Of a stretch of 64,000 bases of DNA, positions 9,759 to 48,321 are shown in pieces. The position numbers and the translations under genes were made by a program. This stretch comes from Candidatus Nomurabacteria bacterium (lineage in GTDB: Bacteria; Patescibacteriota; Minisyncoccia; Phycocordibacterales; SBAW01). The notes below the pieces were generated by a model that saw only the letters and a program-made list of their open reading frames with translations, did no database searches and was not told the DNA's origin. The stretch lies in assembly GCA_943349945.1 (NCBI GenBank), contig CALQZS010000001.1, positions 130,803 to 194,802 of the forward strand. The letters are read 5' to 3'. How positions within the stretch are numbered: the stretch's first letter is position 1; each line of letters begins with the position of its first letter.

Positions 9759-10457
9759 TTATTGAAATGCTGATGATGTGGCCATGCTTGGGGTCGATGA
9801 CGAGACGGTAGTCTGTACTATTGGCGTCGTGGTTGCTTGTGGCTGCACCGCTGCCCCTGGCACCATATTAAGGTTTTTGCCGTAGTTAATAAGAGATGGG
9901 TCCACCGTTGCGGTTACGGTAAAGGTCACCTTGCCCTGTGGGTCGACGGCGATGTCTGAGAACACAATATCCTTGAGCGCTTTGCTTGCGGCAAACTGGT
10001 CGCTCTGTAGCGCCACAGTAGAAAAGCCCGCGGCAATACCCTCGAGCTCTACCTCAGCCGACCCGTCGTCTTGGAGTGCGTAGTTAAAGCTGGTGAATTG
10101 TAGGTTTTGGAGCGTCTGGAGCGAAAGGAAAGAGAATATAGCCGACGCTGCAACGTGGCGCTGCAACAAGGTACCCGCTTGTTTGATACGCAGGTCGATA
10201 CGCAGAAGGTTTTCTATAGCAGAGAGGTCGAAGGCTTCTTTTGTTTTTTGGAGTGAGGCGCTTTTGTCGGCGATAGATTTGACCAAGTATCCTTTGTAGG
10301 CAAAGGTAGCGCCCGCCGCAACGATGGATACTATAAATAGAAAGACACCGACCAAAAACAGTAAGCCTCCGAGCGCGCCGCTATTGCGCGCGCGAGCGCT
10401 AGTATCGAGCGACTTTTTTGGAATAAAAGATGCCGGCGTCTGCGGGTCCATGTACAC
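9759..10457 (-). CDS. pilN: type IV pilus assembly protein PilN-like
   Basis: 232 aa with an N-terminal TM helix, directly downstream of pilM on the same strand. Confidence 0.6.
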   Translation of the reverse strand: MYMDPQTPASFIPKKSLDTSARARNSGALGGLLFLVGVFLFIVSIVAAGATFAYKGYLVKSIADKSASLQKTKEAFDLSAIENLLRIDLRIKQAGTLLQRHVAASAIFSFLSLQTLQNLQFTSFNYALQDDGSAEVELEGIAAGFSTVALQSDQFAASKALKDIVFSDIAVDPQGKVTFTVTATVDPSLINYGKNLNMVPGAAVQPQATTTPIVQTTVSSSTPSMATSSAFQ

Positions 10458-10528
10458 CTAGTATATACTCATTTTTTTGTCCACCAGTATAAAGTTGTGG
10501 CAGTGTGGGGACAAACTAAAAACAACAC

Positions 10529-11629: not shown

Positions 11630-11659
11630 ACTAGCTTACGTTTGTTACCATTATATACT

Positions 11660-12271
11660 ATGTGGGAATCTTTTTTATCTTCCCTACTCGACTACCTAGT
11701 ACTGCCGCGCAAAACAGACCAGATCGTGCGCACACTAACACTCGACGAGCTCTACTCGTTAGTGTTGCACTCTGAAGACCAGGGGCTGTTGCCCTACCAA
11801 GACGAGCGCGTGCGCGCCTTGGTGTGGGAGCTTAAATACTATGCAAATAAACACGCCGCAGCGCTTGCCGCCCTCGTCTTGCATGAAACCCTCATAACAA
11901 TAGCCTCAGAGGAGTTGGGCAAGCCACTACTTATCCCCGTCCCCATGCACAAGGCCCGCAGGCGCGCACGAGGCCATAACCAAACAGAGGTATTGTGTGA
12001 AGCGCTGCTCGCCCATGTGGGCGAGTTTTTTGTATACGCACCAGATGTGTTGGTGCGCCATATGCATACCGAGCAACAGCAGGGGCTGCAAAAAGATAGG
12101 CGGCTCAAAAATGTTGCGGGCTCTATGCACAGCAAGCCGCAGGTCCAAGGCCGCACGTGCGTGGTCGTAGACGACGTCACAACCACCGGTGCCACGTTTG
12201 CCGAGGCCACGCGCGCACTCAAAGAGGCCGGGGCACAGCGCGTGATATGCGTTGCTTTGGCAAAATCGTGA
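11660..12271 (+). CDS. comFC: ComF family protein (phosphoribosyltransferase-type competence protein ComFC)
   Basis: C-terminal PRTase motif VVVDDVTTTGATFAEA. Start uncertain: TTG at 11642 or ATG at 11660. Confidence 0.7.
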   Translation: MWESFLSSLLDYLVLPRKTDQIVRTLTLDELYSLVLHSEDQGLLPYQDERVRALVWELKYYANKHAAALAALVLHETLITIASEELGKPLLIPVPMHKARRRARGHNQTEVLCEALLAHVGEFFVYAPDVLVRHMHTEQQQGLQKDRRLKNVAGSMHSKPQVQGRTCVVVDDVTTTGATFAEATRALKEAGAQRVICVALAKS

Positions 12272-12760
12272 CTAATTGGAAACTTGGAAGTATATATTCG
12301 ACCCGTTTGGTCCTGCAGCCGCGGCAGCAAATGCGCCTGTGCCGCCGCCCGGCGTAGGCGCGGTTATAGACAGCGTCGTAGGCGTCTCTGCTTTTTCTAA
12401 ATTGGTATAGAGCGCGCACGCGCTGCCCGACACCACATACCTGTAGTGCGTTTGCGTAGCGCTACCGATACTTGGGTCTTTGGGGACTTGTGCCAACTGT
12501 GCAGCATATTGTGGATATTTGGCCGCAAGTTCGGGCACCAAGTCTGCCAAGTCATAGTTGCCTGCACCCGCAACAGGCGTATAGCACGCCCCGGTGAGTA
12601 AACGCCCCATTTGCGACACTTCTGCTTTGCGGCGTGCATCACGTGCACCCTCGCGCGCACCACCAAGCGCCACAAACACAATCGAGGCCAAGATACCGAT
12701 AATAGCGATGACTACCAACAGCTCCACTAACGTGAATCCTTTATGAGAAATACGTTGCAT
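12272..12760 (-). CDS. type IV pilin / competence pilin-like
   Basis: ATG at 12758-12760 gives [30 protein letters not shown].... The longer track ORF N-terminus is spurious. Confidence 0.75.
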
Positions 12761-12865
12761 ATACATAACTATAGCTGCAAAATAGCATCTTCGTAAGAGA
12801 AGTTTGACACACACCACCCCATAGCGGACACTGGGCCTAGATGATCTTCGAAAGGAGACTTTATT

Positions 12866-13453
12866 ATGCCCAAAGGGGTACAAACAAGCCCACGCATAGA
12901 CTGGAACGACGACATTCTTGCCCGTCTGCGCCTACTATGGAGCCAAGGCCTGAGCACCGCAAAAATTGGCCGGCGCCTGGGAGTCAGCAAAAATGCCATA
13001 ATCGGCAAAGCTAAGCGGATCGGCCTGCCCGAACGCCAATCACCCATACGCCGCAGTAGCAATAAAGGAGCGCCCCGCACCCGCCAGACAAAAGCCCCCG
13101 CAACCCTGCCGCCACTGACAAGCTTGGCGCAGCCTGTCGTGCATCCAAAGCCCGCCCCCCTTGCGACAGAGCCCGAGGCGCCAGCGCCACCAGTGCTAAC
13201 GGCGGCGGAGATAGTACACGAAAATCCGCTACCTCCTCGCCCTATGTACGTGCCGCCCATCGAAAGTACACAGGCGGCCCACACCACTGAGCAACGCAGT
13301 TGTTGTTGGCCGCTGGGCGACGTGGGCACGCGGAGTTTCCGCTTTTGTGATGCACCAATAGCGACAAGGAAGCCGTATTGCAGCACACACGCCAAAGAAG
13401 CGTATGTAAAAGCACGTGACAGACGTGAGAACGCAGACGCTTTTATACAATAA
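12866..13453 (+). CDS. gcrA: GcrA-like cell cycle regulator family protein
   Basis: The N-terminus ([39 protein letters not shown]) matches the GcrA DNA-binding domain. The C-terminus (CCWPLGD...FRFCDAPI...KPYCSTHA) matches the GcrA sigma70-interaction domain. Strong RBS aaaggag. Confidence 0.75.
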
Positions 13454-13478
13454 GACCCCAACGGGTCTTATTTTTTTA
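13454..13478 (+). terminator. rho-independent terminator after gcrA-like gene
   Basis: agaccccaacgggtct followed by TTATTTTTTT. Confidence 0.6.
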
Positions 13479-13484
13479 TAGAAA

Positions 13485-14027
13485 TTAAACTTTTGAAGAC
13501 AAGAAATCTTTGAGTGCGGCGAAGGGTTTTATTTGCAAATATGTTTTTTCGTACTCAGCCTCGTTCATTTGCGCACGGGTTTGTGTGCAGCCGCTTGGAA
13601 TAAATATTTTGTCCCAGCCGTATCCTCCATCCCCCATTGGGGTTTGCGCTACCTCGCCGTCCATAGCACCTTCAAAAAGTTTGAGTGTCTCGCCGTCGTA
13701 ATATCCAAACACACACTTGGCCGTCGCTTTGCGGTTTTTGTCATTAAGCATCGAACAGATACTTTCAAACGAGAGGCGCTCGATAAAGAATTTTATAAAC
13801 GGCCCGGGCAAACCGCCCAACGCCTCAAACTCGAGCGACACGTCTTCGACAATAACGGGCGTCTTAATTTTCTCATACGCCTGCCGTACCTTGTGCCCCA
13901 CAATCTCTTTTAAATCCATCGATTGCAGCTCGTCCAAGTCGAGCTTTACATGGCTCACAGGCAACCCCAAATACCGGGCCAAGTAGTCGGCCTTTTTTTG
14001 GTTACCGGTGATGAAGGTGATTTGCAT
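13485..14027 (-). CDS. rdgB: non-canonical purine NTP pyrophosphatase (RdgB/HAM1 ITPase)
   Basis: MQITFITGNQKK...LPGPFIKFF..., Ham1 family motifs. Confidence 0.85.
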   Translation of the reverse strand: MQITFITGNQKKADYLARYLGLPVSHVKLDLDELQSMDLKEIVGHKVRQAYEKIKTPVIVEDVSLEFEALGGLPGPFIKFFIERLSFESICSMLNDKNRKATAKCVFGYYDGETLKLFEGAMDGEVAQTPMGDGGYGWDKIFIPSGCTQTRAQMNEAEYEKTYLQIKPFAALKDFLSSKV

Positions 14028-14036
14028 TGTGGTAAA

Positions 14037-14474
14037 TTACATCTTCCTCGAGTCATACGCCCAATGCAACAGCGCTTGCCGCTGTTTTGGGCGACAAAAA
14101 ATATCTCCAGTTCTACAATTATTTTTGATTTGCATTATATGCCTACGCATAGCGAGCCACCTTTTTATTTGCTTCTCGTCATCATCGGTCCTACGACCCA
14201 TAAAATATCTGCAGTACCACTGAAACCACCCGCGCGGGTCTTGCGGATGTATCCAGCCTTTTGCCTGCCATACCGCAAGCGACTGACTCGCGTTTATGCC
14301 AAAGTAATTCAGCTCTTTGTGCCGCTTCCCATCGGGTGATAATTTTGCACTCTTCCACCAACCTTTTGGGAACTCCTTTGGCTTGTCAGAAAAATATAAT
14401 CCACCGAACACACCAAGCTCGAGCATCTCTTTTGGCGTCAGGTCCGGCGTAAAGCGCGGGTCGAATTTCGTCAT
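14037..14474 (-). CDS. hypothetical protein (Trp-rich, conserved-looking)
   Basis: 145 aa with good coding potential and no recognisable family. Confidence 0.5.
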   Translation of the reverse strand: MTKFDPRFTPDLTPKEMLELGVFGGLYFSDKPKEFPKGWWKSAKLSPDGKRHKELNYFGINASQSLAVWQAKGWIHPQDPRGWFQWYCRYFMGRRTDDDEKQIKRWLAMRRHIMQIKNNCRTGDIFCRPKQRQALLHWAYDSRKM

Positions 14475-14480
14475 AGTTTG

Positions 14481-15245
14481 TTATTTCCTCGGCAATGGGA
14501 TAAATATACTTGTTTTCCTTTTGTACTCTGCAAACTCAGGGTTCCCCTCCAGTTTCTTTTCAAGCATCGGAACGCCAGACACTTTCAAGATCAAAAAAGT
14601 TATAGTCATAGGCCCAACAATACCAAGCCAGGCGCCGGGTACAGAGAGAGCGATGAGCCACAGCCCCCACCACTGCACTACCTCGCCAAAATAATTTGGA
14701 TGACGAGTGTACGCCCACAACCCGCTTTGCATCAACTTTCCCTTGTTCTCTGGATTTTTAATAAACCGCGCAAGTTGTGCATCGCCCAAAGCTTCAAAAT
14801 AAAAACCAACAAGCCACACAGCTACGCCTAGAAAATCGAGCAGCACAAGACTCGGCCCAGCATTTTTGTTGATAAGCAGTACCGGCGAAACAATGAGGAA
14901 CAAAAACAGGCCTTGCAAAAGATACACTTGAAAATACGAACGGATATAAAACCACTTGCCCCATTCTTTCCTCCAAGCTAGATAGCGATAGTCCTCTGCT
15001 TTGCCTTTGTTGCGTCTGTGTATGTGCCACGCTAAACGCAAACCCCAAATACTTACCAACACTCCTACCAACATCCCTCGTATACCAGAATCACCGGAAA
15101 GAAAAAAGGATGCCCCTGTCATCAGTACAAACCCGAGCCCCCACGCCACATCGGCCACATCGTTTCTTTTCCTAATCAAAGAAACCACGAACCATAGGCT
15201 CATGTACACAAGCAGTATGGCGATAAGAGTTACAAAATAACTCAT
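14481..15245 (-). CDS. DUF1295 / steroid 5-alpha-reductase-like membrane protein
   Basis: C-terminal RHPNYFGE motif and multiple TM segments. Start moved to MSYFVTL (15243-15245), giving an ATGA overlap with the upstream gene. Confidence 0.65.
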   Translation of the reverse strand: MSYFVTLIAILLVYMSLWFVVSLIRKRNDVADVAWGLGFVLMTGASFFLSGDSGIRGMLVGVLVSIWGLRLAWHIHRRNKGKAEDYRYLAWRKEWGKWFYIRSYFQVYLLQGLFLFLIVSPVLLINKNAGPSLVLLDFLGVAVWLVGFYFEALGDAQLARFIKNPENKGKLMQSGLWAYTRHPNYFGEVVQWWGLWLIALSVPGAWLGIVGPMTITFLILKVSGVPMLEKKLEGNPEFAEYKRKTSIFIPLPRK

Positions 15246-15640
15246 AAACCGATCTTGGTTGCGATGAAGTAGGTTACCGCAGAAACAGACGCCGCGAGCA
15301 CTGCACCCCACACTAAGTCAACGATGGTTACAAGAAGCGGCCAATCTTTGGTGACGGCAAGGTTAGTAAGGTCGTACGTTGCATAACAAACCAAACCAAA
15401 TAGCGCACCGAACAAAAGTGCGTGCGTCCATGAATTCTTCTCTATGGCCGGCATAATTACAAAAACCACAAGACCGACAACAAACAAAAGATAAAAGATA
15501 ATAGCCGCCGTCCAGTTTACATCTGGCTTTAGGAGCGGACCGATTTGTTTAGCGTAAAAACCCTTTGCAACGAGTCCAAGCCACACCATGTCGATGGCAA
15601 AGAAAACAGGGAGTGCTATTGCATAGAGTTTTATGAACAT
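15242..15640 (-). CDS. small integral membrane protein (DUF2177-like)
   Basis: 132 aa, 4 TM helices. Confidence 0.55.
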   Translation of the reverse strand: MFIKLYAIALPVFFAIDMVWLGLVAKGFYAKQIGPLLKPDVNWTAAIIFYLLFVVGLVVFVIMPAIEKNSWTHALLFGALFGLVCYATYDLTNLAVTKDWPLLVTIVDLVWGAVLAASVSAVTYFIATKIGL

Positions 15641-15651
15641 AAAAGATAGGA

Positions 15652-16302
15652 TTAATTAATAATTTCCACCAACACTTCATTGCGATACATCCACGGTGGA
15701 GTCCATGGTGCGCTGTATCCAGCGTATGCAGTGCTTCCCTTTGTCGCCACTCCATCACGGGCAAGTGCCGAAGCTAATTTTTCTTGCATGTCTTTTACCC
15801 GCGTATCCGAGCGATACCCCGAGAATTGCAGTACTGCATATTTCTTGGTAGGGATCATCACGATTTTCACTCTCGGATCATTTGGTGTCGGTAATGTTTC
15901 AAGGGTGTACGAGCGGGGCATACCAAAAGATATTATTTGCGAGTCACCATCAGTCGTCGCTACTACCGGTGCAGTCATAGCAATATTTTCTGATGTTTTT
16001 TCGCCTCCTACTTTTTGCGCGATGACTGGAACGGTCATCGCTATACTTTCTTTTTTTGTATTTCCGCCAAAGATATACCCAGCAACAATTCTAAAACCAT
16101 TATTCATAGATTCTCCATAAGAACCCTTTACCGTAGTCTGCGCTACGATATGTGCCGGATATTCTCGTATTTCATATCCATCTTTTATCTCAATGACAGT
16201 ATAGTCAGCTTGCTCAACACGCGAACCAAAAAATCCTGAGATAGACCAAAGCACCACAATAACAAGCAAAGCGATAAGTATAGTGCTCATATTTTTATTC
16301 AT
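15652..16302 (-). CDS. SOUL heme-binding protein family protein
   Basis: N-terminal TM helix plus the SOUL/HBP fold signature (YEIREYPAHIVAQT...AGYIFGGN). Confidence 0.7.
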   Translation of the reverse strand: MNKNMSTILIALLVIVVLWSISGFFGSRVEQADYTVIEIKDGYEIREYPAHIVAQTTVKGSYGESMNNGFRIVAGYIFGGNTKKESIAMTVPVIAQKVGGEKTSENIAMTAPVVATTDGDSQIISFGMPRSYTLETLPTPNDPRVKIVMIPTKKYAVLQFSGYRSDTRVKDMQEKLASALARDGVATKGSTAYAGYSAPWTPPWMYRNEVLVEIIN

Positions 16303-16345
16303 ATAGCTTTAGTATATAATAGTATATACTAAACTATAATAATAT
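16297..16345. promoter_or_regulatory. divergent promoter region with TAGTATATA direct/inverted repeats (candidate operator)
   Basis: ttagtatataatagtatatactaaactataataatattagtttagtatat lies between the SOUL (-) and fasciclin (+) starts. It contains a 12-bp inverted repeat atatactaaact/agtttagtatat. Confidence 0.35.
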
Positions 16346-16393
16346 TAGTTTAGTATATGCATTAACAATATTTAATCAATTTAAAATAAATAT

Positions 16394-16795
16394 ATGCAAA
16401 ATATCGTAGAAACAGCTGTCGCAGCAGGATCATTTAAAACACTGGTCACTGCAGTGCAAGCGGCAGGATTAGTAGACACTCTATCTGGTGCAGGTCCCTT
16501 CACTGTATTTGCTCCAACTGATGAGGCTTTCGCCAAAATTCCAAAAGAGACTCTCGACGCAGTCCTTGCGGATAAAGCAAAGCTAACATCTATACTTACG
16601 TACCATGTGGTGGCAGGAAAAGTAATGGCTTCTGATGTAATGGGCCTGACTTCTGCAAAGACAGTACAAGGTGATGAAGTTAAAATAGAAACTGCAGATG
16701 GAGTTATGGTAAACGACGCCAAAGTAGTACAAACAGACATAGAATGCACAAACGGAGTAATCCATGTCATCGATTCAGTCTTGATGCCAAAATAA
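16394..16795 (+). CDS. fasciclin (FAS1) domain protein
   Basis: Typical FAS1 H1/H2 motifs ([10 protein letters not shown]...[11 protein letters not shown]). Confidence 0.8.
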
Positions 16796-16814
16796 ATACA
16801 TCCGAAATAAAAAT

Positions 16815-16844
16815 AAAAAACTCTAACTTTTGTTAGAGTTTTTT
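16815..16844. terminator. bidirectional rho-independent terminator
   Basis: aaaaaactctaacttttgttagagtttttt, with A-run and T-run on both sides, between convergent genes. Confidence 0.6.
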
Positions 16845-16855
16845 ATTTTTATTGA

Positions 16856-17245
16856 TTAGGCGTCTATTTTTGCCGCAAGAATAAAATCATTTTGAGAGAG
16901 TCCGTTAATTGCATGGGTGGACAGCGTGAGCTCTACAAATTTGTAGTTTTTCAGATATATGTCCGGATGATGCCCCTCTGATTCAGCCAAAACGCCAACC
17001 TTATTTACAAAAACAAGAGCTTCATTGAAGTCCTTAAAACTATATCGCTTGGCGATACTTTTAGCATCAAGCGAAATATCCCAGCCGGGAATTTGCTTGC
17101 ATAATATATCTGCCTCTATCTTTGAAAAAGGAATGACACCACCATCGCATGCCATGCATTTTTGTTGAGTCAGTGGCGAGTTAGTTTTAGGAGTAGGGGC
17201 CTGACTCTGTATAGTTGTATGTTCCATATGCTTGTAGTATAGCAA
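16856..17245 (-). CDS. phhB: 4a-hydroxytetrahydrobiopterin dehydratase (PCD/DCoH)
   Basis: EGHHPDI...ELTLSTHA motif. Confidence 0.8.
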   Translation of the reverse strand: MLYYKHMEHTTIQSQAPTPKTNSPLTQQKCMACDGGVIPFSKIEADILCKQIPGWDISLDAKSIAKRYSFKDFNEALVFVNKVGVLAESEGHHPDIYLKNYKFVELTLSTHAINGLSQNDFILAAKIDA

Positions 17246-17268
17246 AATTAAGAATGGCTACAAATTTT

Positions 17269-18939
17269 TTATTTCGTATCAATATGATTCCACGCAAAAC
17301 CCTTGTCTCCATACACTTTTTTACCTGGGTTTAAAATAGCAAGCGGGTCAAAAATATCTTTTGTCTTTTCAAAGAGACGTACGATCTCAGGGGTAAACAT
17401 CTGCGAAAGGTACGAGGTACGTAAAAGTCCGTCATTATGTTCTCCAGACATAGAACCTCCATACTGAAATACGAGAGTATAGACTTCATCCATGAGTGTA
17501 TGGAGAGTCTCAACTATTCCTTCTTTATGAATGTCAATAAGCGGAATAATATGAAAGTTTGCATCTCCCATATGTCCGGCCACAGTATAAATAAGATCAT
17601 ATTTCGAAAAAATAATTTCAAGTTTGGGAAGAAACTCCGGGAGATCTTTTGTGTGTACGACAATATCATCAATTGTGGGTGCCGTTCGATACCCTCGCAA
17701 CTTCTGGCGAAGCAGGTTGAAGCTTTCGCGCCTGAATGTCCAATACTTTTTTGCTTCTTGTTCCGAGTGCGTCAATGTAATAGGAAATCCGAATACCTTC
17801 ATCTCGTTATATGCTGACTGTACCTGCTCTGCAACTTCTTCTTCAGTATCCCCTGCAAATTCTGCCATGAGAATTATCTTTGGAACTCCGCCAGTGATTG
17901 CCATCCAAAACTCAGGCAAAAATTGGAACCCGAGCGTCAACATAGTACCCCCCATGCTTTTTGCAATTGAACCAAAGAATTTAATCGCTATTTTAAACGT
18001 ATGATCATCATAAGATTCGATGGTTTCAGGTGTATGTTTTAAAAGTCTTGGAATTATTTCTCCTAGTTGCGTTGTGGCTGGCAAAAACATAACGAGCATT
18101 CTGGAATGTTTTTTGGGGACAATTCCACTCAATGTCGCTTCAGTCACACAGGCAAGGGTTCCCTGACTGCCCACAACGAGCTTTGATAGGTCAAATACTC
18201 CTGATTCTTTATCGTAGACATTCCAAAGATAGTACCCTGAAGAATTTTTTGTTACTGTCGGTTTTGCTTGTTGCAGTACATCATAGTTGTCCTTTACAAG
18301 GGCAAATATCTCTCGATGAATGCGCCCGCTTTCAGTTTGTTCTTCGCATTTTGCGATAAGTTTCTCTGCATGAAGTGGTTCTAGAACATCTTCTTCTCCA
18401 TTTGCAAATACAACACGAAGCGAGCGAACATACTTTTCCGTCTTTCCATAGGTAAGTGTCTTTTCACCTCCTGAGTTATTAGAGACAATACCTCCAATCG
18501 CAGCCAAATCACGAGACGCCGGATAGCTTGGCAAAAGCCAGCCGTGCGCAAGAGTCTTTTTCTCAAAATCACTATAGTATACCCCCGGCTCTGTTATGGC
18601 TTCTGTGTCGGTGACAGAAAATACATGATTCATGTATCTCATTGTGTCTACGACGATGGATTCCGAAAGTGGGCCACCGGTCATACAGGTACCGGCGGCA
18701 CGCATGGTGAGGGATAACGGTACACCCTGATCTATATCTTTAGTTTTTTTTGCATGCACATAAGCAACAAGTTTTGCAATGTCTTCTTTACTTTTTGGGT
18801 AGACAACAATGCGGGGTTTTACATAAAAAAGGCTTGTGTCTCGCGCAGCTTTTTCTCGATCACTGTCTAAGATAGAAATATCTCCTTTGATTATTGTACG
18901 CAAATCACCAGCGACATCCGTATAAAAAATTTCATTCAT
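17269..18939 (-). CDS. FAD-linked oxidase (D-lactate dehydrogenase/glycolate oxidase GlcD-like)
   Basis: 556 aa with an FAD-binding PCMH domain and an FAD-oxidase C-terminal domain. Confidence 0.8.
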   Translation of the reverse strand: MNEIFYTDVAGDLRTIIKGDISILDSDREKAARDTSLFYVKPRIVVYPKSKEDIAKLVAYVHAKKTKDIDQGVPLSLTMRAAGTCMTGGPLSESIVVDTMRYMNHVFSVTDTEAITEPGVYYSDFEKKTLAHGWLLPSYPASRDLAAIGGIVSNNSGGEKTLTYGKTEKYVRSLRVVFANGEEDVLEPLHAEKLIAKCEEQTESGRIHREIFALVKDNYDVLQQAKPTVTKNSSGYYLWNVYDKESGVFDLSKLVVGSQGTLACVTEATLSGIVPKKHSRMLVMFLPATTQLGEIIPRLLKHTPETIESYDDHTFKIAIKFFGSIAKSMGGTMLTLGFQFLPEFWMAITGGVPKIILMAEFAGDTEEEVAEQVQSAYNEMKVFGFPITLTHSEQEAKKYWTFRRESFNLLRQKLRGYRTAPTIDDIVVHTKDLPEFLPKLEIIFSKYDLIYTVAGHMGDANFHIIPLIDIHKEGIVETLHTLMDEVYTLVFQYGGSMSGEHNDGLLRTSYLSQMFTPEIVRLFEKTKDIFDPLAILNPGKKVYGDKGFAWNHIDTK

Positions 18940-19154
18940 ACATTTATTATAACATTATCGGACTCATTTTACTTAGCGTTTGCTTCGAGTTTTTCTTCGC
19001 TGTATATACCAGTACACATAGAGAGAAAGTAGAAGGATTATATTCGGAATAAATATGATTGGTTGACCCCAGGATATTCCATTGATATGGAAGTCTGAAA
19101 TCGGCCACAAAAAAGGCGTTGGGAAAAAGGCAAAATCGTGTGTAGGTATATCAA

Positions 19155-19445
19155 CTAAAATATGAAGTGGCCACGCGAGCGTAAGCTTGGCAAAATGCTT
19201 TTTGCCAAGAATAACGCATAAACGACCAAGCTATGAGTAATACCATAGACGGTGAAGACGTACGGCGGAATCGTTTCTAAGCTTGGCCGACCCATTGCGC
19301 CACCAGAAACTAGATTTATTATAAAAAGAGGCGCGAACGCCAAGAGGTCTGGCCCTATACCAAAGAGAAATGCAGTCACATAATCCCGCCTGCGCATGCG
19401 ACCAAATGCAACACCTCCATATAATCCGTGAGAGATAATGTCCAT
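19155..19445 (-). pseudogene. possible truncated/frameshifted membrane-bound metal-dependent hydrolase (DUF457-like) remnant
   Basis: 96-aa ORF MDIISHGLYGG.... Additional hydrophobic reading frame continues after the stop in 18960-19150, with an overlapping alternative frame at 19231-19449. Confidence 0.3.
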
Positions 19446-19473
19446 ACATTTATTATACTATTTGTATGTGAAA

Positions 19474-20934
19474 TTATTTTTTAGACAGATACTCCTTTGC
19501 AATTTTTAAATAATTTTCTTTTTTCTTTTTTTCCATCTTATCAAAAAGTCTCGGCATCATCGATAGTCGATGATTACTTGTGAAAAAGTCACGGTGACTA
19601 GCTATGAAATTCCAATACAGTGCAGTCCACTTCTCTTCCCAATCGCCACCAGTATAATCTGACATTTTTTTAATGTAATTGCTACCCGAGATATATGGTT
19701 TGGTAGCAAAAATACCACCATCAGCGAACTGACTCATCCCATATACATTTGGTACCATTACCCAATCATACGCATCAACATACATTGCCATAAACCATTG
19801 ATACACATAATCGGGATTAACCTGAGAAAGCAACATAAAGTTACCGATAACCATCAATCGTTCGATATGATGATTGTATCCATAGTGCAGAGCTTTCTTG
19901 ATAGCGCTGTCGACCGGAGCAATACCAGTATCTCCAGTCCAAAATCCTATTGGCAAGTTGCGGGAATGTTTCCAAAAATTCTTCGTGCGCATGACGGCAC
20001 CATCACACTCATAGGAAGCGCGCATAAACTCACGCCACCCAATGATCTGTCGTACAAAACCTTCGAGTGAATTTATAGGTATAGCGTGAGTATCTGCATA
20101 TACTATTGCACTATCGATTACCTGCCTTGGGTCGAGCAATCCAATATTTATGAGAGCTGACAATGTAGAATGAAAAAGCCGTACGCTTTTCGTAGAAAGC
20201 GCGTCCTCATACACACCAAAATCTGCAAAGCGGTCTTCTAAAAATACCTGCAAAAATTTTTTGGCATCCTTGTGTGTATATGGTAGCCAGCAGGCTATCT
20301 CTCCATATTTTTCAGCTTGTATTGTATCGAGCCACTTCTTCATTTTTGATACATCAAAATCATTTTCAAAAACAGTATCCTTGGGGAGAGTTGTATCTCG
20401 AGCAAGTTTTTTTCGATTGTCTGCATCAAAGCTCCACGCTCCCCATCTGGGCTTTCCATGTCCGTCCATCAAGATACCCAAGTCCACTCGAATTTTCTTG
20501 TAGAACATCGCCATATTTTTCTTTGAGCTTTTGTATCTTGCTATTGATTCCTCCTTTGGCAAAATAAAAAGTGGTGACTCATACCAAACCCGCTTTATCT
20601 TGGAAGCTGTTATAGCCCGCTCCAAATAGAAGTCAGTAGTATCGACAATATGAAGTTCTTGTATCCCTTCTTTTTTTAAATAATCAAAAATATCTTTCGT
20701 CTTCGGATACTGTTCAATCGTCAGGCATTTTACTTTGTACCCCTCTTTTTTCAAAAGCTCTGCATATGCGCCCATACTTAATTTGTGCAAAATTAGCTTT
20801 TGATAATGAATGGGGTTGTGCGACAGAATCAAGGGCTCTTCAATCAAAAAAATAATCCGTGCTTTTTGTATAGCCGGTGATTTTATAAAAAGTTGATGAG
20901 GATAGACCAATGTTGCTTCTTTCATAGTATTCAT
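19474..20934 (-). CDS. cryptochrome/photolyase-related protein (COG3046-type)
   Basis: 486 aa with GWREF and NHHIERLMVIGNFMLL motifs, in an AT-rich gene. Confidence 0.8.
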   Translation of the reverse strand: MNTMKEATLVYPHQLFIKSPAIQKARIIFLIEEPLILSHNPIHYQKLILHKLSMGAYAELLKKEGYKVKCLTIEQYPKTKDIFDYLKKEGIQELHIVDTTDFYLERAITASKIKRVWYESPLFILPKEESIARYKSSKKNMAMFYKKIRVDLGILMDGHGKPRWGAWSFDADNRKKLARDTTLPKDTVFENDFDVSKMKKWLDTIQAEKYGEIACWLPYTHKDAKKFLQVFLEDRFADFGVYEDALSTKSVRLFHSTLSALINIGLLDPRQVIDSAIVYADTHAIPINSLEGFVRQIIGWREFMRASYECDGAVMRTKNFWKHSRNLPIGFWTGDTGIAPVDSAIKKALHYGYNHHIERLMVIGNFMLLSQVNPDYVYQWFMAMYVDAYDWVMVPNVYGMSQFADGGIFATKPYISGSNYIKKMSDYTGGDWEEKWTALYWNFIASHRDFFTSNHRLSMMPRLFDKMEKKKKENYLKIAKEYLSKK

Positions 20935-20937
20935 CTA

Positions 20938-21204
20938 TCAGGTTGATAGTATTAAAATCAAAATAGCGAAGTATACGATCAGATAAAAACGATAGAAATT
21001 AATCACCCGCAACTCTGCACTCTTCGTGCGCTGATGAAAGCCAAAAAGCACTTTGATCTCCTCCCAAAAAACGGGCTTTACATTAATCCACCAGCTATCA
21101 GTTTGATAGACCATCTTCCTAAATCGACTGCGAAACAATCCCAAAGGAAAACTCCAGATAAAAAACGCAACGATGGCAATCGTGTGTATGGTTATAGTAT
21201 CCAT
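20938..21204 (-). CDS. small membrane protein (translationally coupled to photolyase-related gene)
   Basis: 88 aa, two TM segments, with its stop 3 nt from the downstream start. Confidence 0.4.
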   Translation of the reverse strand: MDTITIHTIAIVAFFIWSFPLGLFRSRFRKMVYQTDSWWINVKPVFWEEIKVLFGFHQRTKSAELRVINFYRFYLIVYFAILILILST

Positions 21205-21325
21205 TTATGCCTCTTCAGTCCTTACTTCTATTATAAACTTTATTCTCTCAAGAGCTACCATTCCCTCCCCCTCCTTTTTGCGAACCTCGACCTTCAGGGG
21301 CAAAAGATACTTTGGCCATAAATTT

Positions 21326-22225
21326 TTACTCCACCGGACAGGTGTTTTTGCCCATCGCGGCGTAGAACCCACACCAGCTAAATATTGCTTCAAAGAATGC
21401 AAGGCCGGAGAAGAAGATGAGGATGGGGCTCCAGGTGGTGGTGATGGCCCATAGGAGCAATGCAATGCCAATGGCGAGGCGGACGAGTCGGTCGGACTTG
21501 CCGATATTTTTAGCAACTCCACGCACAGAGTTTTTAGCAACCTTTTTCAAAATCGCGCGGTAGACGAAGCCCACGATGAACGCAAGAATATATATAATGA
21601 CAATCAGTCCCCACCCAAAGGGCGAGAGGATAAAGCCGATTGGCGATTCGTTAAAAAAATCCTTTTTAATCTGCGGGATGAGCGTGAGTGCGTTTAAGCC
21701 TTCTTTGCCGTCAAACTTCTCTATCTCACCGATGGCGAGCGAGTACTTGCTGTCGTTGTTGGGGCTTGTCACACGGATCTCGTAGATGCCTACATCAGCA
21801 CGCGCTTTATACTCTGGTCCTTGCCAGTAGGTGTCGTAGCCAAATGGTTCAAAAAACTGTTTCCATGCAAATGTCGCGCCATCGAGCACGGCGATTTGCT
21901 TGCCGTCTTTTAGTACCACAGCGGAGACATCTTTCTTTTGCCCTGCAATGTCTGGCACCAAGACTCCGACATACAGATTAAACGCTTGCTTCGCATCTAT
22001 AGTATATACATCCGGCTCGCCCATGAGCTTGCCATAATATGCTTTGGAAACTTCGGGGTCAGTAACTGATGTAAGTCTATCCTCTGTAATTCGAGGCTGA
22101 TGTGCGGAAGCCAAGCTCGGAGTCAACGTAAATATAGAGACAAACAACGCAAGCAGCGTGAGTGATAGTAGTTTGGAATTTATGTTATATCCGAAAACGT
22201 TCAAGATGCACCTAGTATACAGCAC
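21326..22225 (-). CDS. secreted protein with C-terminal DUF2892-like transmembrane domain
   Basis: Signal peptide plus a C-terminal RLVRLAIG...SWCGFYAAMGKNTCP motif. Confidence 0.5.
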   Translation of the reverse strand: MLYTRCILNVFGYNINSKLLSLTLLALFVSIFTLTPSLASAHQPRITEDRLTSVTDPEVSKAYYGKLMGEPDVYTIDAKQAFNLYVGVLVPDIAGQKKDVSAVVLKDGKQIAVLDGATFAWKQFFEPFGYDTYWQGPEYKARADVGIYEIRVTSPNNDSKYSLAIGEIEKFDGKEGLNALTLIPQIKKDFFNESPIGFILSPFGWGLIVIIYILAFIVGFVYRAILKKVAKNSVRGVAKNIGKSDRLVRLAIGIALLLWAITTTWSPILIFFSGLAFFEAIFSWCGFYAAMGKNTCPVE

Positions 22226-22230
22226 CTAGT

Positions 22231-22599
22231 CTAGAAGTAAGGGATGAGTAAACTAAGTCCCTTCCCCATCAGAAAGCTGTATATCAGCAACCCAATGAAC
22301 GGTAGAGGCACCAGCCATAAAAACCATCTTGGATGGTCAGGTTTTTTTGAAAAAACCATGTACCAATTCAACGCAAATATAAGAGGTGTACAAATTGACA
22401 AGAGAGCACTTGTACCAAAACCGAGCAGTCCAAACACTTCCCCACTACTCCATACGAAAGAGTCGTCCTGCACAATAAACAAAAAGGCTACGCTCGACCA
22501 AACAACAGCTATTAGAAACACCTTTACTAAAAGCGCTTCGTAAATTCCAATAGCAGCCAAAACTATTTTTACAGGCGTGTTGATGGTGAATCTATGCAT
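22231..22599 (-). CDS. hypothetical membrane protein
   Basis: Start moved to ATG 22597-22599 (MHRFTINTPVKIV...), because the track ORF's N-terminus overlaps a tRNA on the same strand. Confidence 0.45.
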   Translation of the reverse strand: MHRFTINTPVKIVLAAIGIYEALLVKVFLIAVVWSSVAFLFIVQDDSFVWSSGEVFGLLGFGTSALLSICTPLIFALNWYMVFSKKPDHPRWFLWLVPLPFIGLLIYSFLMGKGLSLLIPYF

Positions 22600-22627
22600 G
22601 TAGGTAATTATATACCCATAACCGTTG

Positions 22628-22714
22628 CGGAGAGAGCGAGATTCGAACTCGCGGGCCCAATTAAGGGCCGACAGTTTAGTAAACTGTTGATTTAAACCAC
22701 TCATCCATCTCTCC
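22628..22714 (-). tRNA. type II (long variable arm) tRNA, Ser-like, anticodon apparently ACU
   Basis: Acceptor GGAGAGA/TCTCTCC, T-arm GCGAG-TTCGAAT-CTCGC, variable arm GGCCC-TTAATT-GGGCC, and anticodon stem ACAGT/ACTGT with loop TTACTAA. Confidence 0.7.
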
Positions 22715-22926
22715 ATATATTCGCACTGCTCAAATGGAGCTGCTCGGCGCAGATCGATGGAATCGTGGTCGGCACATGGTGCCGGCTTGAGAAGAAGCAG
22801 TTCTTCTCTTCGCCCATCTCATCCATCTCTCCTTGCCCTTGAGGATACTACAGTATATAGAGGAGCTCAATTAAAGCCTTTTTGAGCGTGTAAAGTAGCC
22901 CCTATTATGGTACTGTGGCGTGTATT

Positions 22927-23011
22927 GGAGACGTGTCAGAGTGGTCGAATGTGCCTCCTTGCTAAGGAGGTAGGGCGCAAGCCCTCGTGGGTTCGAATCC
23001 CACCGTCTCCG
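22927..23011 (+). tRNA. tRNA-Ser (GCU)
   Basis: Acceptor GGAGACG/CGTCTCC, anticodon loop TTGCTAA between CCTCC/GGAGG, long variable arm, and T-arm GTGGG-TTCGAAT-CCCAC. Confidence 0.85.
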
Positions 23012-23049
23012 CAAAGCTAAATTTTGATATATTCTCCTATCTAAATTTT

Positions 23050-23230
23050 GCTTATGTGTGAACGGGAGAGGGATTCGAAGGACGGAAGAAAAGCTCTGGG
23101 AGAGCTTTTCTGAGTCGGGGTCGCGAGATTTTTCAGCAGAAAAATACTTGTGACCGAATCCCACTGTCCACAAATACTACGCGGCGTAGAATTGAGTCGA
23201 AGCCGAATCGTTTTAATCGTCTCCGCTTAG
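23050..23230. repeat. degenerate tRNA-end fragments (possible att-site scars)
   Basis: gggagagggattcgaagg resembles the end of the minus-strand tRNA. gaccgaatcccactgtccaca and atcgtctccgc resemble the 3' end of tRNA-Ser(GCU), TTCGAATCCCACCGTCTCCGCA. Confidence 0.35.
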
Positions 23231-23298
23231 TTTTTTGTAGTGTTCTACTGTAGAGCATTTTATGTGGTATAAACAAGCCATATCATTAATTTTTTAAT

Positions 23299-29985: not shown

Positions 29986-31104
29986 CTAGTCATTGTCTGG
30001 CAGCAAATCAATATCGCCCACGCGTGGCAGCGCGCCATCAAAGCGTCGCTCCGCCTTGAGGTACGTCTCGAGTTCTACAGCGCTCTGCAGCGCAGTATCA
30101 AACTGCACCACCGCCGTGTCATAGTCGGCTGCACCAAAGGCAGTGTCGCCCGCACTCATCAGCACGCTGGTCGAAGCAAGCACGGTTTGGACATACTCTG
30201 CCAATTTTTCATCTTTTAGAGAAAGAGCGTGGATACGCCCAAGCACCAAACGCGTACGCGCCTTCAATTGTGCTGCAACAGCTTGGCCACTAAGCGACCC
30301 TTCGTCTGGCGCCGGCGCAGCCACCTGCGGCACTGGCTCGCTGGTTGTTGCCGCTATGGACATCACTTTGGCTGCTTTTGCAGCCACTGCCACAGGCTCG
30401 CTCCGGCGCTCCAAGACCACACGCTTACTTTCTTTGACAGGCTTGTTTGCCTCTGCTGCTGCGGTGGCGTGCATCCGCACCCGTACCGCAAACTTTCGCG
30501 ATGTGTTTTTTGTTTCTTCGTCGGGACTTTGTTCGCCCAAGTGGCTCAACACTGCATCGTTGACCGCCAAGGACGACGCGAGTTGCGTGCTAATTTGTGC
30601 TGCGGCACCTGGGTCCTCTATCTCGAGCACCTCTGTCAAAGACTGCGCTGCCGCCACATGCTCGTCGAGCTGCAGCTGCAGCTGCTCTGCCACGGTGGTC
30701 GTAAACTTGCCCTGCGAGGCAAGATCTTGTGCCTCTTCTACGCGACGCTCGGCCAATACTGCTTGCGCCTCGGCTTTGGCGGTGGGCGTTGTGGCAAGTG
30801 CTATTTCTACAAACTCGTTTACGTGGATCTTCACCGCGTACAGCAAGTCGCCAGGCAATGCGGTTTGTGCCGCGTAGCTGGTGCCGCCGCCGCTACCCGC
30901 TACAAACACAAACAATATGAGTGCCGCGAAGGTACGCTGCAATACTACATGGTTGAATATAAAAAAGTGATACGGACTTTGCACCAAGGGAGACGCGGGG
31001 TTAAGCGCCATGCGCTCGCTCAGGCGGGCACGCAAAGTAGCCTTCTCTTGTACAGTAAGGCGGACACGCAAACCTTCGTTTTTAAATTCTTCGGTAAATT
31101 TCAT
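29986..31104 (-). CDS. putative anti-sigma factor (single TM, Ala/Glu-rich coiled-coil extracytoplasmic domain)
   Basis: ATGA overlap with the upstream ECF sigma gene. N-terminal cytoplasmic segment, then a TM helix at about residues 60-80. Confidence 0.5.
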   Translation of the reverse strand: MKFTEEFKNEGLRVRLTVQEKATLRARLSERMALNPASPLVQSPYHFFIFNHVVLQRTFAALILFVFVAGSGGGTSYAAQTALPGDLLYAVKIHVNEFVEIALATTPTAKAEAQAVLAERRVEEAQDLASQGKFTTTVAEQLQLQLDEHVAAAQSLTEVLEIEDPGAAAQISTQLASSLAVNDAVLSHLGEQSPDEETKNTSRKFAVRVRMHATAAAEANKPVKESKRVVLERRSEPVAVAAKAAKVMSIAATTSEPVPQVAAPAPDEGSLSGQAVAAQLKARTRLVLGRIHALSLKDEKLAEYVQTVLASTSVLMSAGDTAFGAADYDTAVVQFDTALQSAVELETYLKAERRFDGALPRVGDIDLLPDND

Positions 31105-31637
31105 GATTGTGCTTCTGGTTCCATGAGCGTACGGAGCTTTTTGAGCCCGCGGTGTATCCGCACCGATACCACATTTTCGCTCTCTTCTATCGACTCTGCA
31201 ATCTCTTTTGGACTAAAGCCCTCTATATAGCGCAGCGCCAACACCTCGCGGTATGGGTCGGCCAACTTGGCCAGCGCCGCGAGCGCGCGCTTGCCGTCGA
31301 AGCGGTCCATAGCAGCTTCGAGCGCGTTTGTCTCGTCGGCAGGTAAAAGGGACTCCACCGTCTCGCCGCCCTCGCCGCTTTCGACCATCTGTTCGAGCGA
31401 TGTGGTTTTGTGCTTGCGGTACTCGTCGACAATAAGGTTATGTAGCGTGCGGTAAAAGAAGGGACGGTAGTCGTGGATTTCTTCGCCGCGCGAGACATAG
31501 GCCCACGCACGCAGAAAAGTCTCTTGCGTCAAGTCGAGCGCCCGCTCCCTGTCGGAGAGCCTGAGTGTCGCATGCCGGAAAAGCTCGTCGGCATACCGCT
31601 CAAAGGCAGCAGTAAATTGTTTTTCTGTGTCTACCAT
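31101..31637 (-). CDS. ECF-type RNA polymerase sigma factor (sigma-70 family)
   Basis: Region 2 (DLTQETFLRAW) and region 4 (YIEGFSPKEIAESIE...VRIHRGLKKLR) motifs. Confidence 0.85.
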   Translation of the reverse strand: MVDTEKQFTAAFERYADELFRHATLRLSDRERALDLTQETFLRAWAYVSRGEEIHDYRPFFYRTLHNLIVDEYRKHKTTSLEQMVESGEGGETVESLLPADETNALEAAMDRFDGKRALAALAKLADPYREVLALRYIEGFSPKEIAESIEESENVVSVRIHRGLKKLRTLMEPEAQS

Positions 31638-36378: not shown

Positions 36379-36531
36379 CAAGAAGAAAGGGATTTCCCCT
36401 TACAGGGGCAGTACAGGTCTCGTATCGCACTTCATAAACTTTATGCGATATACTCGACCTTTTCAATCCCTGCACATACAGTGCATAGGCACTGTATTCG
36501 CGCCAATACTCGCTATGCTCGTTCTATTGTG

Positions 36532-36603
36532 TGGGCGCGGCAGGGATTGAACCTGCGACCAGTCGTGTATAAGACGACCGCTCTACCACTGAGCTACGCG
36601 CCC
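36532..36603 (-). tRNA. tRNA-Ile (UAU)
   Basis: Acceptor GGGCGCG/CGCGCCC, D-arm GCTCAGTGGTAGAGC, anticodon stem GTCGT/ACGAC with loop CTTATAC, and T-arm GCAGG-TTCAATC-CCTGC. Confidence 0.75.
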
Positions 36604-47622: not shown

Positions 47623-48321
47623 TTATTCCAGAATCGCCAAACTGCTCAATTCTGGCACACGTCCCAAGATTAAATCTTGAGCATTCGTACGAAAATCTGC
47701 CGGTGAACAAAATATTTCTGCGAGAATATCCTTTTCAACAACTGCCGCATATATAGAGTTTTCTCCAGCATACTCTTTTAAGCTCGAAAAAGGATACGTA
47801 TCGACAGCCCACTTCCACGCCTCATTAAAATTTTTTGCAGCAGTCACATATCCCCCTGGATATAATTCGAACACATTTTTTACTACTATATACGGGACCA
47901 CGTAACGCAAATGTCGGTCTGTCTCAACTGTACGACTACGATATGCACCTTGGAAAATACTACCTCGCTCACTATATTTTTCGTTAAAATATCGGGACAT
48001 ACTGCCACAAACACTTTGCATAAATCGCGCCACCCCTCTTTCTTGAGTTTCTTTAAGCAAAAGGTGGAAATGGTTCGGCATCAACGTCCAAGCAAGTACC
48101 TTTACTAATGGTCGACGTTCTGGCCAAACAGCAGGGCGTTCAAACATTCCCAGATCACAAATATCTCTCTCCCAAAAATCGGAGCGATGTTCGTCGTTTA
48201 AATAATAAAGGAGTTTTACAAAACGCCGCTTATCAGCCTCATCACGAGTGATAGGCATGCCGCGCGCTCCGCGTTTAACAACATGAACAAAAGAACCCAC
48301 TTCATGAGGTTCCACTCTCAT
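47623..48321 (-). CDS. REP-associated tyrosine transposase-like (RAYT, IS200/IS605-family Y1 HUH) protein, second paralog
   Basis: HUH motif WTLMPNHFHLLL. Divergent paralog of the gene at 3876. Confidence 0.75.
   Translation of the reverse strand: MRVEPHEVGSFVHVVKRGARGMPITRDEADKRRFVKLLYYLNDEHRSDFWERDICDLGMFERPAVWPERRPLVKVLAWTLMPNHFHLLLKETQERGVARFMQSVCGSMSRYFNEKYSERGSIFQGAYRSRTVETDRHLRYVVPYIVVKNVFELYPGGYVTAAKNFNEAWKWAVDTYPFSSLKEYAGENSIYAAVVEKDILAEIFCSPADFRTNAQDLILGRVPELSSLAILE

Follow-up and report, generated by a model that had tools for sequence, protein, structure and literature searches.

How does a gene for GcrA, a protein regarded as an invention of the Alphaproteobacteria and their phages that works with the methylase CcrM, come to lie in a bacterium of the Candidate Phyla Radiation (CPR), and could its product regulate transcription there? 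The question is posed by an open reading frame (ORF) on the forward strand of contig CALQZS010000001.1, at positions 12866-13453 of the 64-kb stretch of DNA analyzed here (the window). A first-pass annotation, made from the sequence letters, had named it a GcrA homolog, and both the ORF placement and the two GcrA signature motifs proved to be exactly as described, with the N-terminal motif ([32 protein letters not shown]) at residues 23-54 and the C-terminal motif (CCWPLGD...FRFCDAPI...KPYCSTHA) at residues 146-176. The product is very probably an intact GcrA-family protein of horizontal origin. The best explanation of the locus as a whole, to which we assign a probability of roughly 0.55, is that a horizontally acquired GcrA occupies a recombination-prone slot and acts by the mechanism of Caulobacter GcrA. 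A literature search returned no paper naming GcrA together with CPR bacteria or Patescibacteria.

The protein, its fold and its kin

The family assignment, for which a Pfam search had been proposed as the check, is borne out by a strong, full-length match to the GcrA hidden Markov model PF07750 (95.6 bits against a gathering cutoff of 26.9, E = 5.3e-27, profile positions 2-153 of 155). Sequence searches of the PDB retrieved full-length Caulobacter crescentus GcrA (7YE1_G) at E = 7e-16 as well as separate matches to the GcrA DNA-binding domain (DBD; 5YIU) and sigma70-interacting domain (SID; 5YIX_B). In an AlphaFold2 model built from 48 homologs, the DBD has a predicted local distance difference test score (pLDDT) of ~95 and helices at residues 15-26, 31-38, and 42-52, the linker (residues 56-140) scores 52-64 and is devoid of secondary structure, and the SID scores 82-91. 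Searched against the PDB with Foldseek, the model has GcrA structures as its top five matches; the modeled DBD superimposes on 5yiv_A with a root-mean-square deviation of 0.9 Å and a TM score of 0.92, and the modeled SID on 5yix_B, likewise with 0.9 Å. Within the linker, a TLPPL motif is conserved in the clade to which the protein belongs, and T80, L81, and P82 are invariant in the homolog alignment.

The critical residues of C. crescentus GcrA were mapped onto the protein from the study of Wu et al. (2018; PMC5887438). All predicted zinc ligands are kept (C118/C133/C143/H146 in C. crescentus, C146/C161/C172/H175 here) with the spacing C146-X14-C161-X10-C172-X2-H175, the second spacer being one residue longer than in Caulobacter, as it also is in the donor clade. 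The five essential sigma70-contact residues are likewise all present (W120/F130/F132/Y142/Y151, corresponding to W148/F158/F160/Y171/Y180), and the residues of the DNA/N6-methyladenine (m6A) pocket N34/I37/G38/K39/R42 are identical at N43/I46/G47/K48/R51. R33 is replaced by K42, a lysine shared by 119/119 of the nearest cellular clade members. The C-terminal tail ([14 protein letters not shown]) carries four basic and four acidic residues and aligns more closely with the donor-clade sequence KVRDRREDAA than with the KKK patch of Caulobacter; its residues 185-195, together with K182 and R184, align as the putative counterpart of the GcrA basic patch, which contacts non-template single-stranded DNA (PMC9976885).

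In overall architecture the protein matches Caulobacter GcrA (5YIU/5YIV for the DBD, 5YIX for the SID bound to sigma70 domain 2, and 7YE1/7YE2 for the activation complexes): a three-helix DBD of the sigma4 type is joined by a long disordered linker to a CCCH zinc-finger SID, after which comes a C-terminal tail. The two proteins differ, however, in that identity across the two domains reaches only about 40%, with the substitutions R33->K, H41->K, K119->C, P125->V, G129->S, and V149->E, that the C-X9-C step of the Caulobacter zinc motif (C-X14-C-X9-C-X2-H) is C-X10-C here, and that the linker spans about 85 rather than about 60 residues. Furthermore, the present host is not alphaproteobacterial, and no CcrM was found in the ~80 kb searched around the gene.

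The nearest homologs are cellular. A word-indexed search gave identities of 44-52%, the named matches belonging to Acetobacteraceae, Rhodospirillales, and Rhodopila. An exhaustive HMMER search over 1.84 billion cluster representatives returned 14,386 matches at E <= 1e-3 and 2,879 at E <= 1e-10; down this list, identity falls from 100% (the query itself) to 54% for the next match, which carries the same clade motifs. The family is thus large, but with no sequence among 15 billion proteins closer than 54%, the immediate donor is unsampled. In a neighbor-joining tree of the two conserved domains (100 bootstraps), the protein nests within a cellular clade of Acetobacteraceae/Rhodospirillales type, and 94/100 bootstraps exclude the phage/viral, Caulobacter, and Rickettsiales copies from it. 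Across the two domains the protein is 72% identical to the best clade members, 40% to Caulobacter GcrA, and 36-38% to phage copies. Its closest relatives (e.g., P0003, P0007, and P0365; 44-54% identical overall, about 72% in the domains) share with it the motifs [14 protein letters not shown], CCWPLGxxGTxSFRFCD, and KPYC..HA..AYVK.RDRRE. The loci of two of the closest homologs, in which gcrA lies between genes for a HAD hydrolase and a cold-shock protein at 68-69% GC, in one case beside cytochrome oxidase genes, are ordinary alphaproteobacterial chromosome.

The first-pass annotation had also offered a phage remnant as the source and called for a phylogeny against phage homologs; the tree and the identities speak against that origin. 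GcrA-like proteins of phages (phiCbK group, Brevundimonas phage Bajun; PHROG 16311/12262) resemble the protein in standing outside the canonical chromosomal cell-cycle circuit and in keeping the DBD and the CxWP...FC...YC..H domain, but they are only about 28-30% identical overall (phiCbK group and Bajun at E about 1e-4) and lie outside its clade. Among IMG/VR copies, the highest full-length identity is 38%, and phage and viral copies together span 26-38% overall. The protein is neither an equivalog of the alphaproteobacterial cell-cycle regulator nor a phage copy; its affinity is to the cellular GcrAs of Acetobacteraceae/Rhodospirillales type.

A separate observation concerns one viral contig, L013 (IMGVR_UViG_3300004774_000016), on which a GcrA homolog at 9986-10528 accompanies genes for a terminase, a portal protein, and a primase/helicase, as expected of a bona fide phage. 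The N-terminal domain of this homolog is Acetobacteraceae-like (64% identical to that of the protein under study) and its C-terminal domain is divergent, so phage-borne GcrA copies exist outside the phiCbK group.

The insertion slot and the age of the gene

The recipient genome was guessed in the first-pass annotation to be CPR-like, and rightly so: ribosomal protein L2 shares 81-84% of its residues with proteins named Candidatus Adlerbacteria/Paceibacterota, which identifies the host as a CPR bacterium (Candidatus Adlerbacteria). The window is chromosomal, with the S10/spc ribosomal operon, EF-Tu, SecY, FtsH, RecG, SmpB/tmRNA, and a type IV pilus/competence cluster. The reported proximity of gcrA to that cluster is real, the nearby genes encoding PilB, PilM, a ComF-type phosphoribosyltransferase, and a prepilin (PilO gave a weak, sub-threshold match). 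Phage structural, replication, and integrase genes, for which a search of the flanks had been suggested, were not found by Pfam among the genes at 7-34 kb and the other unassigned genes tested, and gcrA does not sit inside a prophage.

The gene constitutes a cassette of its own. Comparison by blastn and MAFFT with the corresponding loci of three relatives (L089, L090, and L092) delimits a segment of ~714 bp unique to this genome (Table 1), in which homology ends just past the prepilin start codon (~12770) and restarts at the Ham1 stop codon (~13485). The segment contains upstream intergenic DNA, gcrA, and a terminator, and no direct repeats flanking it are seen in these alignments. None of 66 metagenomic loci with a PilM 41-80% identical carries a GcrA homolog, while the gene order ComF, PilM, PilN, PilO, PilB is kept in them; in several, an extracytoplasmic function (ECF) sigma/anti-sigma pair and RecG, which in the window lie at 30-36 kb, come right after ComF or 0.3-5 kb further on.

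In closer relatives (L089-L094; PilM 94-98% identical), gcrA is also absent from the slot, which holds other genes or none. The sequence after ComF reads prepilin, gcrA, Ham1 in the window; prepilin and then the 3′ end of glmS in L089; prepilin, a class I S-adenosylmethionine (SAM)-dependent methyltransferase, and Ham1 in L090 and L091; an 85-aa DUF218-like fragment and Ham1 in L092 and L093; and directly the hypothetical 145-aa protein gene (hyp145) in L094. The slot just downstream of ComF is a hotspot of gene-cassette turnover. The SAM-dependent methyltransferase that fills the equivalent position in L090 (11126-11764, reverse strand) has 212 aa. It was considered as a DNA methylase and rejected: its Pfam matches are Methyltransf_11/23/25 and UbiE, i.e., small-molecule class I enzymes, and not N6_N4_Mtase.

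To the right of the slot begins a block of low GC content (third-position GC content, GC3, at z of -2 to -3) that shares 98.5% nucleotide identity over 9.5 kb with the congeneric locus L092 (10958-20491) and ends 17 nt past a tRNA-Ser gene, while the pilus operon to the left of gcrA is only 76% identical to the same L092 contig. The block encodes Ham1, hyp145, DUF1295, DUF2177, SOUL, fasciclin, pterin-4a-carbinolamine dehydratase, an FAD oxidase, YdjM-like, photolyase-related DPRP, and YgaP-like proteins as well as two tRNA-Ser, and looks like a recently exchanged, tRNA-Ser-linked island. Downstream of tRNA-Ser(GCU), the region 23013-23298 contains copies of the tRNA 3′ end, inverted at 23070-23079 and direct at 23155-23168, and a perfect 11-bp hairpin at 23087-23111; these features look like attachment (att)-site scars of integrative elements. 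The contrast in identity, the tRNA-Ser end, and the 3′-end fragments together place gcrA at the left seam of the exchanged island. Near gcrA, no tRNA-end repeats that could delimit the island were found beyond the local scars.

From the absence of the gene in relatives and its placement in a cellular alphaproteobacterial clade, the horizontal acquisition proposed at the outset is well supported, and we consider it highly probable that a Candidatus Adlerbacteria lineage acquired gcrA from a cellular branch of Acetobacteraceae/Rhodospirillales type. The clade affinity might also hint at ecological contact with such bacteria.

The age of the acquisition can be read in two ways. Close relatives lack the gene, which points to a recent gain; its host-like composition and the 54% ceiling in identity point to long independent evolution. 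With a GC3 of 0.57, gcrA lies exactly at the average over 47 core genes (z = 0.0), in contrast with 0.69-0.86 in the nearest alphaproteobacterial gcrA genes, which sit in a conserved context of aerobic genomes and not as an isolated cassette in a CPR genome of 52% GC. The simplest reconciliation invokes an unsampled moderate-GC intermediate, e.g., the accessory gene pool of related CPR bacteria; alternatively, the gene may be an older resident of the slot that was replaced in relatives. The divergence accumulated under purifying selection, since the protein keeps 56/67 positions that are >=95% conserved in the clade as opposed to the consensus at 29/79 variable ones (Fisher p = 7e-9). The ribosome-binding site and terminator attributed to the gene by the first-pass annotation are both present: a Shine-Dalgarno sequence AAGGAG (12852-12857) lies 8 nt before the ATG, and a hairpin resembling an intrinsic terminator (13449-13472; 10-bp stem, 4-nt loop, T-run) lies 3′ of the stop codon. 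These two elements and the host-like GC3 are signs of adaptation to expression in the host.

Possible action in the present host

By analogy with the work on Caulobacter GcrA (PMC5887438, PMC9976885, PMC4647560), the protein would attach as a monomer, through its zinc-finger C-terminal domain, to region 1.2/2 of the primary sigma factor. Its long disordered linker would give the N-terminal helix-turn-helix domain the reach to find GANTC-type boxes located about -30 to +30 of the start site. Boxes with N6-methylated adenine would be preferred by way of a pocket formed by K42, N43, I46, and G47, and the reading of such boxes near promoters might then stimulate open-complex formation. That the protein works in this cell as a sigma-tethered transcription cofactor is a tentative proposal, for which we judge the chances to be slightly below even.

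Several results weigh against action by the Caulobacter mechanism. The score against NF050816, the NCBIfam equivalog model of the alphaproteobacterial cell-cycle GcrA, is 71.4 bits, far under the cutoff of 280, so that the protein, though of the GcrA family, does not count as an orthologue under this model. It carries 11 changes at clade-invariant positions, where clade members average 0.7 and none exceeds 5. Three changes are specific to it and fall where the clade has either an invariant residue or always a hydrophobic one: H41->K50, a DNA-contact change, and P125->V153 and V149->E178, both at peripheral contacts of the sigma interface. The latter two could mean that the protein has adapted to another sigma factor or that constraint on it has relaxed. 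Caulobacter GcrA touches both conserved and non-conserved parts of the alphaproteobacterial sigma70. A scan with the sigma70 consensus found no promoter-like site upstream of gcrA, although CPR promoters may differ. Moreover, confinement of the gene to one population implies that it is dispensable for the lineage.

The first-pass annotation had also asked about a partner methyltransferase and target sites. Alphaproteobacteria either have both gcrA and ccrM or lack both (PMC3885167). Pfam searches of candidate genes found no DNA methyltransferase in the window, a six-frame scan of the window for (D/N/S)PP(Y/F/W/H) gave no match in a real gene, and the ~16 kb of extra flank beyond the window ends contained neither a methyltransferase nor rpoD (~80 kb in total for the methyltransferase); rpoD was also not found in the window or in loci L001-L086. 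GANTC is mildly depleted in the window (136 sites versus 161 +/- 13 expected from shuffles, z about -1.9), CTNAG, TCNGA, and GGNCC are more depleted still, and YGAKTCG stands at chance level (19 versus 22.7 +/- 4.4); both counts are uninformative. The density of GANTC in intergenic DNA is 1.5 times that in coding DNA, which is a weak ratio.

Two candidate signals were discarded. Depletion of GANTC as a sign of a cognate methylase or of restriction is not distinctive, given that the three other palindromes of the xxNxx type are more depleted. Within 134 bp at 23072-23209 lie five GANTC sites, of which three are YGAKTCG, and this cluster was weighed as a possible GcrA-regulated promoter; it is explained by the tRNA, whose T-arm includes GAATC, since the region is made of direct and inverted partial copies of the tRNA-Ser 3′ end.

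The most serious rival explanation, which we regard as unlikely but well short of far-fetched, makes gcrA a neutral or near-neutral passenger that was taken up (e.g., via the adjacent competence machinery), recombined into the hypervariable slot, plays no regulatory role for want of a partner methylase and a compatible sigma surface, and will eventually be lost. Restriction to one clonal population, slot cargo that differs from one close relative to the next (glmS, SAM-methyltransferase, DUF218-like fragment, nothing), the lack of a nearby methyltransferase, the excess of substitutions at invariant positions, and the missing GcrA-box signal are all what such a passenger would leave. It accounts poorly, however, for an intact ORF that retains its ribosome-binding site, its terminator, every zinc ligand, and all essential interface residues, and in which substitutions strongly avoid invariant positions; a host-like GC3, against 0.69-0.86 in the nearest donors, further implies that the gene has long resided in a moderate-GC background and has not decayed there. 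Arrival on a phage or integrative element, as a moron or remnant whose surroundings have since decayed, is improbable. Phage homologs are on record (18 Caulobacter/Brevundimonas phage records, matches to both PHROG families, and IMG/VR contigs such as L013, with terminase, portal, and primase, and L014, with an integrase), and the locus adjoins the tRNA-Ser-linked island with its att-like scars, but neither the cassette nor its immediate flanks contain a phage, integrase, or transposase gene, the unique segment is a mere 714 bp without repeats, and it is the cellular copies, at 44-54% identity, and not the phage or viral ones that share the clade of the protein.

The sigma70-contact residues typical of the alphaproteobacterial clade, kept in a non-alphaproteobacterial genome, the adjacent type IV pilus genes, and the affinity to Acetobacteraceae/Rhodospirillales would also suit a factor that an episymbiotic CPR cell directs at the sigma70-RNA polymerase of an alphaproteobacterial host, much as Caulobacter phages are thought to do. 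This proposal is entirely speculative and very improbable: the protein has no signal peptide or hydrophobic N-terminus, the gene is strain-specific, and prepilin and gcrA are unlinked in relatives. Nor are these organisms known to possess a protein-delivery system. Lastly, because the best matches are alphaproteobacterial, a fragment of such a genome might have been chimerically joined to a CPR contig during assembly or binning. This artefact is effectively refuted. The gene and the same neighbors recur on 13 contigs that were assembled independently and come from several samples, among them assembly GCA_964805655.1 and contigs of 208-424 kb, and these shared junctions exclude an assembly chimera. 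All copies in the population are 100% identical and so offer no polymorphism from which selection could be read. In addition, GC3 is host-like and the nearest alphaproteobacterial protein is only 54% identical.

If the protein is active, a sigma-tethered methylation reader would be transplantable into a very different, minimal transcription system, and it would open a way into the study of regulation in CPR bacteria, where recognizable regulators are few. It is a long shot that it works as an "orphan" m6A reader and sigma cofactor re-tuned to the CPR transcription machinery, in which case H41K, P125V, and V149E would be adaptive, or as a factor against the sigma70-RNA polymerase of an Acetobacteraceae-type host, in which case it would hint at the identity of the alphaproteobacterial host. 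If the protein is inactive, the locus is simply a well-documented example of how single-gene cassettes turn over at a recombination hotspot beside CPR competence genes. As a single, population-specific acquisition in an unexpected phylum, its significance is limited unless activity is demonstrated.

Features of the locus and minor observations

Table 1. Coordinates of gcrA, its segments, and its neighbors in the 64-kb window.
Feature	Position	Strand	Remarks and basis
gcrA-family ORF	12866..13453	+	ATG start, 195 aa, coordinates include stop codon; Pfam, PDB match, AlphaFold2 model
Upstream intergenic region with Shine-Dalgarno sequence	12771..12865	+	direct sequence reading
Three-helix DBD (N-terminal, residues 11-55)	12896..13030	+	AlphaFold2 model, superposition on 5yiv_A, residue map versus PMC5887438
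Pro/Ala-rich unstructured linker with TLPPL motif (residues 56-140)	13031..13285	+	AlphaFold2 model, alignment
CCCH zinc-finger SID (residues 141-184)	13286..13417	+	PDB match, AlphaFold2 model, superposition on 5yix_B
C-terminal tail (residues 185-195), [11 protein letters not shown]	13418..13450	+	alignment
Intrinsic-terminator-like hairpin and T-run	13449..13482	+	between convergent gcrA and Ham1
Single-gene gcrA cassette, ~714 bp	12771..13484		segment unique to this genome; blastn and MAFFT versus L089, L090, L092
ComF-type phosphoribosyltransferase	11642..12271	+	last gene of conserved pilus/competence synteny block
Type IV prepilin (N-methylation motif)	12272..12763	-	divergent from gcrA; in L089 and L090, not in L092
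Ham1-family non-canonical NTP pyrophosphatase	13485..14027	-	first gene of shared downstream block
Low-GC block	13519..23029		98.5% nucleotide identity to L092; ends 17 nt past tRNA-Ser

Opposite gcrA, a 230-aa ORF at 12769-13461 was dismissed as a shadow ORF. Next to Ham1, a 145-aa protein (14037-14474, reverse strand) has no Pfam match and recurs with 65-99% identity beside Ham1/ComF in several Adlerbacteria relatives. Two divergent genes for IS200-like Y1 transposases (PF01797; 3858-4556, forward, and 47623-48321, reverse), with weak to moderate Pfam scores, lie far from gcrA; one of them interrupts the pilus cluster and has no counterpart there in L090 or L092.

Two tRNA genes deserve mention. 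Inside the island, ARAGORN predicts at 22627-22714 (reverse strand) a tRNA-Ser with anticodon ACT, i.e., with A at the wobble position, which would be unusual for a bacterial tRNA-Ser; it stands beside the normal tRNA-Ser(GCT). At 36531-36603 (reverse strand), a tRNA-Ile with anticodon TAT (UAU) suggests AUA decoding without a TilS-modified CAU tRNA. Finally, the cluster encoding DUF1295, DUF2177, SOUL haem-binding, FAD oxidase, and photolyase-related proteins (14481-20934) is located ~9 kb from the ECF sigma/anti-sigma (DUF5667) pair (29986-31637). Similar gene sets belong to ECF regulons for photo-oxidative stress in Alphaproteobacteria.

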